This document shows positions 17,921 to 19,581 of a stretch of DNA of 22,360 nt, in pieces. The first letter of the stretch is position 1, and every line of letters starts with the position of its first letter. The notes under the pieces were generated by a model. The model searched no databases. It saw only the letters and a program-made list of their open reading frames with translations, and was not told where the DNA came from. Position numbers and translations under genes: made by a program. This DNA is from a virus (Duplodnaviria > Heunggongvirae > Uroviricota > Caudoviricetes), in the IMG/VR virus record IMGVR_UViG_2737471845_000014, positions 1-22,360 of that record, one strand, 5' to 3'.

Positions 17921-18307
17921 CTACTCGTTTGCTTGAGCTTTCGATTCGGCGTCAGATAAAGCATCAATACGAATATTTATGTTTTTTAATAGCTTATTGT
18001 CTAGATCGATAAGACATTGGTTGTAGTGCGCAATTTGGTCTGGTGTTAGGTTAGGGTTGGCCAGGCAGTTCGTGATGAATTTTCTGGCCGTTTTTATTTC
18101 CCTTTTCATTCTTACATCATTAAGCGTAGGCAAACCTATGTAAGCGATAAGAAGAATTACCACATGAGATAAGCCGACAGCAGCTCCAGGCGCCAATGAT
18201 TTGAAGAAGGCTAATTGAGGAAGCCAGTCAAAAAGGAAATTCAATCCCGCAGTGATAAGGGTGGTAAACCATGCCTGCATTGCCAGGTAGGATTTAGTGT
18301 TCGCCAT
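17921..18307 (-). CDS. Hypothetical membrane protein (128 aa), third gene of the opposite-strand operon
   Basis: Two predicted TM helices (AWFTTLITAGLNFLF, AAVGLSHVVILLIAYIGL) and a coiled-coil-like C-terminus; ATG directly follows the upstream gene's TGA (TGAATG at 18305-18310). Confidence 0.6.
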   Translation of the reverse strand: MANTKSYLAMQAWFTTLITAGLNFLFDWLPQLAFFKSLAPGAAVGLSHVVILLIAYIGLPTLNDVRMKREIKTARKFITNCLANPNLTPDQIAHYNQCLIDLDNKLLKNINIRIDALSDAESKAQANE

Positions 18308-18553
18308 TCACCTTCCTGCACTTGCTTCGTTGCGAGTTTTGAGTTCGCGTAGCAGTAGCGCCAACTCTTCTGCGTCATTTTCGTTTCTAACGCTGACTTT
18401 CCTTTTAGCGGTTCTGCCTTCAGGATCGGTGTAGGTTAGTTCAATATACGCATTCGGCTTTACCCAAACCAAGAACCTAAGCACAGCATATCTGACCGTC
18501 GCTGCGACAGCCATGAATACAGTGATGTAAAGCATAATGCTTAGGATTGACAT
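18308..18553 (-). CDS. Hypothetical small membrane protein (81 aa), second gene of the operon
   Basis: N-terminal TM helix (MSILSIMLYITVFMAVAATVRYAVLRFLVWV) plus a charged tail; 3-nt spacing to the upstream gene. Confidence 0.6.
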   Translation of the reverse strand: MSILSIMLYITVFMAVAATVRYAVLRFLVWVKPNAYIELTYTDPEGRTAKRKVSVRNENDAEELALLLRELKTRNEASAGR

Positions 18554-18556
18554 GAT

Positions 18557-19435
18557 TTAAAGTAGTTTCCTATCTGCCGCCGCTCTGTGGCGTATAACCT
18601 TAGTAATACTATAGCGTGGTTTAGACAGCGCGCCATTTGTTTCTTTTGTTGTTTCTGTCAGTTCTACAACAAAAAGATCACCCTTACAGAATGCTGCTTG
18701 GTTGTGTTCAACCCGTTCAAGAAAAGCCTCATCTTTCATAGATGCGCTAACTTCTTCGCCATTTGGCAGGATGATATCCCAGCTTTTGCCTTGCTTGAAT
18801 CGAACATTAGCAAAATGTACATTAGCTTGGCGTGTCGTTACGTGCGTTTTCTCGACAAAGGTGGATTTTGCAGTTTTAAAACTTACTGCTTCAGCTTGCG
18901 TCACCCTGACTACCTTATGCTTCTGCTGTGAAACTGAGAACGTGGATGGTTTTTCAGTCTGCAGGGGTTTATAGATTAATTTATCCAGTTCTTTTCGGAT
19001 GATTGGACTGGTTATTAATTTTTGAATGTCGTTACTGCATTTAACCTTCTCACCATCCACTTCGATTTCTGCTGTATCTTTTTGTTCATCGACGACAATG
19101 GAGCTGATTTTACGCCCTTTGAGCCATTCGATTATCCCGAGTACGCCACCTGCGGCAACTCCACCACCTGCAACGAGGCCAAGGGCGTTAATAGTTTTTA
19201 TGCTCCCCATCACAGCAACAAGCAAAGTAAATGAACCTTCTTTTGTTGCCTTGATGTTGACTTTCGGCTCTGCTGTTTCGCCATTAATTATTTTTTCGGC
19301 GTGTTCAATCAGGGCACTAAGAGAGGTTAAGGCTTCGCCTAATGTTTTCGCGTCGATCTGATTATCTGCGTATGCCTCTCCACCGTAGGCAATTTCGATT
19401 TCTGTTATTGGCATGTTTTCGAGTTGCTGCGTCAT
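18557..19435 (-). CDS. Hypothetical protein with a central glycine-rich TM segment (about 292 aa), first gene of the operon
   Basis: ATG at 19435 (GGA upstream; the ORF track's GTG at 19468 is the alternative); central hydrophobic stretch (LGLVAGGGVAAGGVLGIIEWL); C-terminal ~190-aa K/E/T-rich domain; no recognisable family. Confidence 0.6.
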   Translation of the reverse strand: MTQQLENMPITEIEIAYGGEAYADNQIDAKTLGEALTSLSALIEHAEKIINGETAEPKVNIKATKEGSFTLLVAVMGSIKTINALGLVAGGGVAAGGVLGIIEWLKGRKISSIVVDEQKDTAEIEVDGEKVKCSNDIQKLITSPIIRKELDKLIYKPLQTEKPSTFSVSQQKHKVVRVTQAEAVSFKTAKSTFVEKTHVTTRQANVHFANVRFKQGKSWDIILPNGEEVSASMKDEAFLERVEHNQAAFCKGDLFVVELTETTKETNGALSKPRYSITKVIRHRAAADRKLL

Positions 19436-19555
19436 CAAAAGCATCCTTTGCGCAAGAGAAATAGCCACAGGATACAGATAATTATGAAAAAATCACTAAC
19501 GCGTACGCAAAAACTATCTTAATCTGTTAAGAGTGGTCGCTTCGCCACACAACTT

Positions 19556-19581
19556 AAACCCGCATCAAGCGGGTTTTTTTG
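19556..19581 (+). terminator. Intrinsic terminator-like hairpin
   Basis: AAACCCGC-atcaa-GCGGGTTT followed by a T run (19574-19580); lies between the opposite-strand operon's upstream region and the tRNA promoter. Confidence 0.5.

Follow-up and report, generated by a model that had tools for sequence, protein, structure and literature searches.

Introduction

The mechanism of the RexAB system of lambda prophages is still debated. PDC-S42 is a defence candidate whose members are embedded inside BREX, DISARM, type I restriction-modification or Hma loci (10.1101/2024.01.29.577857, Payne et al.); the 145 PDCs of that study, which are single- or multi-gene, are candidates that the authors themselves state to be untested (10.1101/2024.01.29.577857), and no entry named PDC-S42 was found in its supplements. 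Two further precedents are a phage cargo hotspot, i.e., a fixed slot between conserved phage genes in which many alternative and unrelated cargo sets occur, including genes recognisable as defence genes (2022, PMC9122126), and the pore-former EACC1 (PF19953; 10.1101/2025.11.14.688446). Here, we compare with these systems a cassette of three minus-strand genes, called p292, p81 and p128 after the lengths of their products, that lies just beyond the antiterminator gene Q of an E. coli lambdoid prophage integrated beside cmoA/cmoB. The sequence is IMG/VR record IMGVR_UViG_2737471845_000014, positions 1 to 22,360; this whole stretch of 22,360 nucleotides is referred to as the window.

A conserved and mobile three-gene cassette

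The three genes follow each other closely (Table 1). The end of p292 and the start of p81 read TAA-ATC-ATG, leaving a 3-nt gap, and p81 and p128 meet at TGAATG; both the coordinates and the junctions are those that the original prediction, made from the letters of the window, had given. The ATG at 19435 is also the RefSeq start of p292, and an alternative GTG at 19468 adds 11 residues to yield a form of 303 amino acids. The cassette had further been described as AT-richer than its surroundings, and its GC content is indeed 0.434, compared with 0.503 in the left flank and 0.505 in the right. Relative to relatives whose proteins are ~77-91% identical, the ratio of nonsynonymous to synonymous substitution rates (dN/dS) was 0.03-0.10 for each of the three genes (0.06-0.10 for p81 and 0.04-0.10 for p128). 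Because this ratio is low in each gene, and because the order of a large, a small and a mid-sized gene is kept, p292, p81 and p128 are real genes under strong purifying selection.

Hidden Markov models (HMMs) of the three proteins were used to compare the cassette across loci, those examined being prophages and islands. The same order and tight coupling were found in every locus with enough downstream sequence, over a range in which the large protein falls from 100% to ~30% identity, and the same architecture recurs at ~25% identity in a Vibrio Vinavirales (tectivirus-like) prophage-like element. The trio is thus conserved as a unit, and it occurs in several accessory slots. In the window and in many relatives, the trio is antisense between Q and the lysis genes (L033-L050; L060/61, at 37% identity; and L062-64 from Citrobacter; L numbers designate loci); elsewhere it lies on the sense strand in the nin region (L005-8, L053-55), at the end of a P2-like prophage (L013), on a VapE-primase/resolvase island of Enterobacter (L009-12), or in a chromosomal islet with a Mor fragment upstream (L018). 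In a Plesiomonas lambdoid prophage (L065/66), whose three proteins are 82-85% identical to those of the window, the trio directly follows cI, is co-directional with it, and is upstream of cIII. Hok-type toxins adjoin the nin-region copies. The cassette is rare and patchy: it was present in 37 of 5426 complete E. coli genomes, in all of them at an identity of at least 99.8%, and it is missing from most phages of the same backbone. The trio is one conserved, horizontally mobile cargo module.

The large protein, p292

The original prediction recognised no family for any of the three proteins. That holds for p81 and p128, which match just two PHROGs without assigned function (phrog_27630 and phrog_26468, respectively), but not for p292. 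In the PADLOC scan that had been proposed as a check, p81 and p128 matched no model, and p292 matched the PDC-S42 HMM PDLC05015 over nearly its full length (E=3.3e-53, residues 22-299 of the 303-amino-acid form). It also matches phrog_3243 and the NCBIfam model NF053583, named "LAPAL motif-containing putative phage structural protein" (1e-66; 225.3 bits against a cut-off of 60). Where the LAPAL motif would align, in the N-terminal helix, p292 reads TLGEAL; the LAPAL sequence itself is kept in the distant members P0140, P0150, P0160, P0175 and P0200. A profile search returned 2906 representative clusters for the family (~2900 at 50% identity), 1473 of them at E<=1e-10, and nearly all members are ~290 amino acids long and share a single architecture. 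Literature searches on PDC-S42, the LAPAL motif, DUF7946 and the RefSeq accessions found nothing, PDB sequence searches with the family profiles gave nothing meaningful, and no enzymatic domain was recognised in the cassette proteins.

In the structural model, p292 is laid out as a DUF7946-like N-terminal alpha/beta domain, a glycine-zipper linker, a middle alpha/beta domain and a C-terminal OB-like fold; the Pfam family DUF7946 was matched by the N-terminal domain in 56 of 144 relatives (best value, 2e-8). The zipper, G92xxxG96xxxG100, is followed by WLKGRK, and the protein ends in a conserved RHR. It forms part of a hydrophobic Gly/Ala-rich stretch at residues ~84-102, whose Kyte-Doolittle score of 1.97 is borderline for a transmembrane (TM) helix, and which AlphaFold renders as short helices and a low-confidence loop with no TM helix. 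The position of this stretch is kept across the family (residue ~85), with a median maximum hydropathy of 1.62 and about half of the members below 1.6. As the stretch is borderline for a TM helix throughout the family, p292 looks soluble in these models and is not clearly a membrane protein, so that the prediction of TM helices in all three proteins stands for p81 and p128 but not for p292.

The members of the family that score best on PDC-S42 (1e-77 to 1e-98) form a clade that has the true LAPAL motif and lacks the small partners. Examples of these solo genes are Lactobacillus phage A2 ORF19, which lies between the endolysin and int genes, Bbif-1 and P0150; a CapH-like helix-turn-helix regulator is encoded upstream of one solo-clade relative. 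It might be supposed, then, that p292 is itself a latent membrane-inserting or pore-forming effector that acts through its glycine zipper and is held off by its own N-terminal domain, with p81 and p128 as modulators, docking sites or immunity factors. Such an effector would need no partners, as in this large clade at the core of PDC-S42, and it would account for the constant position of the Gly-rich hydrophobic stretch and for the resemblance, below threshold, between residues 81-140 and the toxic half of EACC1. That match was obtained, however, for only 3 of 144 members; furthermore, there is no adjacent protease gene, and the AlphaFold2 model without a TM helix, like the half of the family whose hydropathy is below the usual TM threshold, does not suit insertion into a membrane. 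We consider an effector of this kind unlikely.

The small membrane proteins, p81 and p128

p81 has one strong N-terminal TM segment (residues ~2-20, hydropathy 2.18) followed by a basic C-terminal domain of ~50 amino acids, and every locus of the trio, that of the Vibrio element among them, has kept it. Its gene is missing from the RefSeq (PGAP) annotation of identical cassettes, which shows instead a 249-nt gap between two annotated genes, despite the purifying selection on p81. The AlphaFold2 model of p128 has four helices and a predicted local distance difference test (pLDDT) score of 79: the two N-terminal helices (~3-28 and 30-57) form a TM hairpin, and the charged C-terminal half consists of two long helices on the cytoplasmic side. 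Neither protein has relatives in Pfam, NCBIfam, PADLOC or the PDB, and neither gave a Pfam or PHROG holin match.

Two small inner-membrane proteins, encoded in prophage accessory slots that include one adjacent to cI and without any enzymatic domain, could also provide superinfection exclusion (Sie) at the envelope that is not abortive. The membrane proteins would then block DNA entry, a receptor or a translocon, as do P22 SieA, HK97 gp15 and T4 Imm, and p292 would be their cytoplasmic partner. The best-conserved part of the module, however, is the cytoplasmic OB-like p292, which stands alone in many lineages and suits a sensor or an effector better than a block on entry, and no homology to known Sie proteins was found in PADLOC or Pfam. 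We judge envelope exclusion to be quite unlikely.

A hypervariable cargo slot between Q and a conserved block

In phages that have the same Q allele and lack the cassette, similarity to the window is lost ~25 nt before the Q stop codon; in phages that share the tRNA and lysis side, it is regained exactly at the terminator that precedes the tRNA genes. IMG/VR was searched with a 17-mer, CTAACGCGTACGCAAAA (window 19496-19512), from the conserved block that borders the cassette on the right, which returned at least 120 contigs; 119 loci (L068-L186) were read. Q was in range in 90 of these 119, and in all 90 it was of the same type as in the window (61-100% identity). Across the 90 loci, the distance from Q to the 17-mer varied from 123 nt, at one empty site (L179), to 3.5 kb. 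The slot, which corresponds to 17908-19495 in the window, contained ~38 architectures of open reading frames (ORFs), representing ~30 or more unrelated cargo sets, and the trio was the occupant in seven of the 90. Almost all cargo ORFs (190/194) use the minus strand and so run antisense to the late genes. The interval from Q to the block is a hypervariable cargo hotspot, with conserved flanks, unrelated inserts and an empty site, and the trio had rightly been taken for foreign "moron" cargo between Q and the late-promoter region. The slot was not described in the literature searched.

Of ten representative cargo proteins compared with PADLOC models, eight had no match; the other two matched an HEC-04/OLD-like ATPase (1e-30) and PDC-S60 (5e-101). 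The cargo of the L159 type (353 and 592 amino acids) combines an OLD/ABC-type ATPase (HEC-04 at 1e-30, and also AriA, PtuA and GajA-like) with a putative C5 DNA-methyltransferase, the latter called by eye from the motifs FSGCGG and ENV. The same Q type is present in the Stx1a-converting phage Stx1_14040, in which the same slot, ~570 nt upstream of stx1A, is filled by a cassette of three other minus-strand genes (350, 130 and 220 amino acids; L026 421-2528, LC567819.1 13620-15727), with the same conserved block just beyond it. No significant Pfam or PADLOC match was obtained for the Stx1_14040 cassette.

A cassette that is mobile, AT-rich and patchy resembles many morons and toxin-antitoxin loci, and the trio could serve lysogenic conversion or addiction and play no part against phages, for instance by stabilising the prophage in the manner of a membrane toxin/antitoxin pair or as a fitness factor related to the envelope or to stress. 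The Hok-type toxins beside the nin-region copies and the scarcity of annotation among the cargo of the hotspot would fit such a role. Against it stand the origin of the PDC-S42 family from within defence systems, the closely related trio in the rexAB slot and the other, defence-like cargo of this hotspot; conversion or addiction cargo is thus improbable.

The conserved block, putative promoters and terminators

The block contains a universally conserved TAnnnT at 19520-19525 and is followed by an intrinsic terminator. Its link to one type of Q suggests that the Q-utilisation site and the beginning of the late transcript probably lie in it as well. No convincing rightward pair of -35 and -10 hexamers was found for pR'; the statement that the cassette lies between Q and the late promoter therefore rests on the comparison of phages, in which conservation brackets pR'. 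The terminator is kept in phages with other Q types and is presumed to be the tR' that is read through by Q-modified polymerase. A reading of the block as purely a pR' and Q-utilisation region was dropped: part of it accompanies the Plesiomonas trio into the cI slot (L066 ~3740-3865), and it also gives the -35 of a leftward promoter.

Every cargo ends just to the left of the 17-mer. The leftward -35, TTGCGT, and the palindrome that it overlaps, GCGTACGC, are inside the block common to all cargo types, and each cargo brings its own -10, often TGn-extended, 17-19 nt past the shared -35. Apparently, then, a -35 that belongs to the phage backbone drives leftward transcription of whichever cassette is present. 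For the trio, an AAAGGA ribosome-binding site lies 8 nt before the p292 ATG. Transcription from this putative sigma-70 promoter of its own, with a predicted start near 19474, would proceed leftward and oppose that of the late operon, and the trio would accordingly be expected to be expressed in the lysogen. No minus-strand intrinsic terminator was found 3' of p128 (window 17820-17925), so that cassette transcripts would continue antisense into the convergent Q gene. In lambda, paQ exerts antisense control of Q; the predicted run into Q is reminiscent of this, although the parallel is speculative.

Table 1. Positions of the cassette genes and of associated features in the window.
Feature	Position	Strand	Basis or remark
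Q antiterminator, 82-type	17557..17907	+	PF06530 (Pfam E=1.3e-45); start mapped from RefSeq (L001)
p128 gene, 128 amino acids	17921..18307	-	phrog_26468; AlphaFold2 model; dN/dS
p81 gene, 81 amino acids	18308..18553	-	phrog_27630; hydropathy; dN/dS
p292 gene, 292 amino acids from ATG	18557..19435	-	PDC-S42, NF053583 and phrog_3243 matches
Putative leftward cassette promoter	19481..19510	-	-35 TTGCGT (19510..19505), 18-nt spacer, -10 CATAAT (19486..19481)
Conserved block, right edge of slot	19496..19555	+	CTAACGCGTACGCAAAA ... TAnnnT ... TGTTAAGAGTGGTnACTTCGCCAC; common to Stx1_14040; at least 120 viral contigs; presumed late-promoter/Q-utilisation region
Intrinsic terminator, presumed tR'	19556..19583	+	8-bp G+C-rich stem (19556-19576) and T7 run; free energy -16.9 kcal/mol
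Four phage tRNA genes (CAT, Lys-TTT, Thr-TGT, Gly-TCC)	19701..20010	+	Upstream of lysis genes

Q, which is convergent with the cassette and stops 13 nt from the p128 stop codon, forms the left edge of the slot. To the right of the cassette come the conserved block, the terminator and four tRNA genes, and then genes for a holin, a YdfR-like protein, lysozyme and Rz. As in Stx phages, the tRNA array separates the holin gene from the presumed tR'. Its first member (19701-19776) is tRNA-Met (CAT) according to ARAGORN and tRNA-Ile, with a lysidine-type CAT anticodon, according to RefSeq. An Rfam scan matched the tRNAs alone. A 36-amino-acid "antiterminator" coding sequence in RefSeq (WP_086259018.1; 19533-19643, plus strand) spans the terminator hairpin and is probably a spurious call.

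Discussion

We tentatively read the trio as an anti-phage module, expressed in the lysogen, that brings about exclusion or abortive infection by a Rex-like logic without being homologous to RexAB; we hold its chances to be a little short of even. We favour it because the trio is a mobile cargo unit, sits in a hotspot, is linked to PDC-S42 and has a copy in the rexAB slot, and because of its composition, which is that of a sensor-like protein with no recognisable catalytic domain together with small membrane proteins. In such a module, cytoplasmic p292 would serve as sensor or adaptor and would probably bind its ligand through the C-terminal OB-like domain. Once infection is sensed, p292 would act via the inner-membrane proteins p81, with its one TM segment, and p128, with its TM hairpin, and the glycine-zipper segment of p292 might contribute as well; the membrane would be compromised, and the infection aborted or excluded. 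A role in superinfection exclusion or abortive infection had been put forward in the original prediction, and it remains plausible, given the membership of p292 in a published family of defence candidates and the closely related trio in the rexAB slot; the function itself is something that we infer. The suggestion that the system was undescribed needs amending. p292 had already been catalogued, in PDC-S42 and the LAPAL family, albeit as an uncharacterised protein, and the trio is accordingly a three-gene variant of a listed candidate rather than a categorically new system.

Several observations weigh against a defensive role for the trio, or against the division of labour just outlined. To judge from the solo clade, the large protein has no need of membrane partners, and the split into sensor and effector may therefore be wrong. 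The p292 of the window also belongs to a diverged sub-clade, its PDC-S42 match of 3e-53 being well removed from the 1e-77 to 1e-98 of the solo members, and PDC-S42 was itself defined as a single gene whose activity is that of a candidate only. Most of the cargo in the slot is without a recognisable defence annotation, which makes guilt by association weak. Finally, in Orbaceae/Gilliamella prophages (L031, L058 and L059), the trio lies directly upstream of, and co-directional with, genes for Holin_2-3 and an SLT lysozyme, the terminase being further on, and this layout leaves room for a role related to lysis. These loci, together with the Mor fragment at the chromosomal islet, indicate that the position between a late activator and the lysis genes recurs outside the lambdoids.

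A structural or lysis-accessory function would fit the Orbaceae arrangement, the name of NF053583, the placement of the cassette beside lysis genes in lambdoid phages and the holin-like topology of p128. In the window, however, the cassette runs against the late operon, in a phage whose S/R/Rz lysis set is already complete and includes a class II holin at 20303-20518. Other copies follow cI, lie in the nin region or at a P2-like prophage end, or belong to a non-phage island or to an islet without phage morphogenesis genes; the cassette is missing from most phages of the same backbone, and there is no Pfam match to a holin. A structural role is argued against by the antisense orientation and by the copies after cI, on the non-phage island and in the chromosomal islet, and we regard either function as very improbable.

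The preferred reading, of a Rex-like exclusion or abortive-infection module, can be stated in a stronger form that we think somewhat unlikely to hold in full. The trio would be a three-component abortive-infection system, in which an OB-fold sensor gates a two-protein membrane effector, distributed from Enterobacterales lambdoids to the Vibrio element, and it would be one occupant of an undescribed slot in lambdoid phages with an 82-type Q, whose backbone would supply both a shared -35 and an operator-like palindrome and so drive any inserted cassette antisense to Q.

Should the trio be a working defence, a widespread family, of ~2900 clusters at 50% identity and without a recognisable enzymatic domain, would join the anti-phage repertoire. 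It would be a second, unrelated case of Rex-type logic, i.e., a cytoplasmic sensor with small membrane proteins, and the single-gene PADLOC candidate PDC-S42 would have a three-gene form. The Q-to-late-promoter slot, being compact and conserved on both sides, is easy to mine for new prophage cargo; its ~30 or more cassettes are mostly unannotated, and the cassette that precedes stx1 in Stx1 phages is among them. No description of a hotspot with a shared backbone promoter element was found in the literature searched.

Comparison with known systems

Three systems or families that might have been thought related can be set aside. Tai systems occupy another genomic place and have no membrane proteins. 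A holin identity is not supported: there is no Pfam or PHROG holin match for p81 or p128, the cassette is antisense and the phage has its own class II holin. The link to EACC1 was judged too weak: the region of p292 that resembles its toxic C-terminal half, residues 81-140, combines the Gly-rich stretch with beta strands and scores 15.6 bits against a Pfam cut-off of 23.6, and 3 of 144 relatives match at E<=0.1. Moreover, EACC1 is ~110 amino acids long and is paired with a protease, whereas there is no protease-like gene in the cassette or in its relatives. NF053583, phrog_3243 and DUF7946 are names without tested function; p292 is above the cut-off, and the LAPAL motif is not present in the window.

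The likeness to lambda RexAB is one of organisation. Both are prophage-encoded and combine a cytoplasmic protein of ~280-290 amino acids with one or more small multi-TM membrane proteins, and the Plesiomonas copy of the trio takes exactly the place of rexAB, between cI and the pL/cIII operon, whereas the window copy follows Q instead. Homology was looked for and rejected, hhalign giving probabilities of 0.4% for the large protein against RexA and 18% for a membrane protein against RexB. As for PDC-S42, p292 has, beyond the near full-length match, the same domain layout as core members. What distinguishes the clade of the window is that p292 is always followed by two genes for small membrane proteins, the solo layout having been seen just in the LAPAL clade. 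The hotspot itself has a precedent in PMC9122126, which concerns another phage family and another slot; the one described here extends from an 82-type Q to the late-promoter block, and its cargo is almost uniformly antisense and is apparently transcribed from a shared backbone -35.

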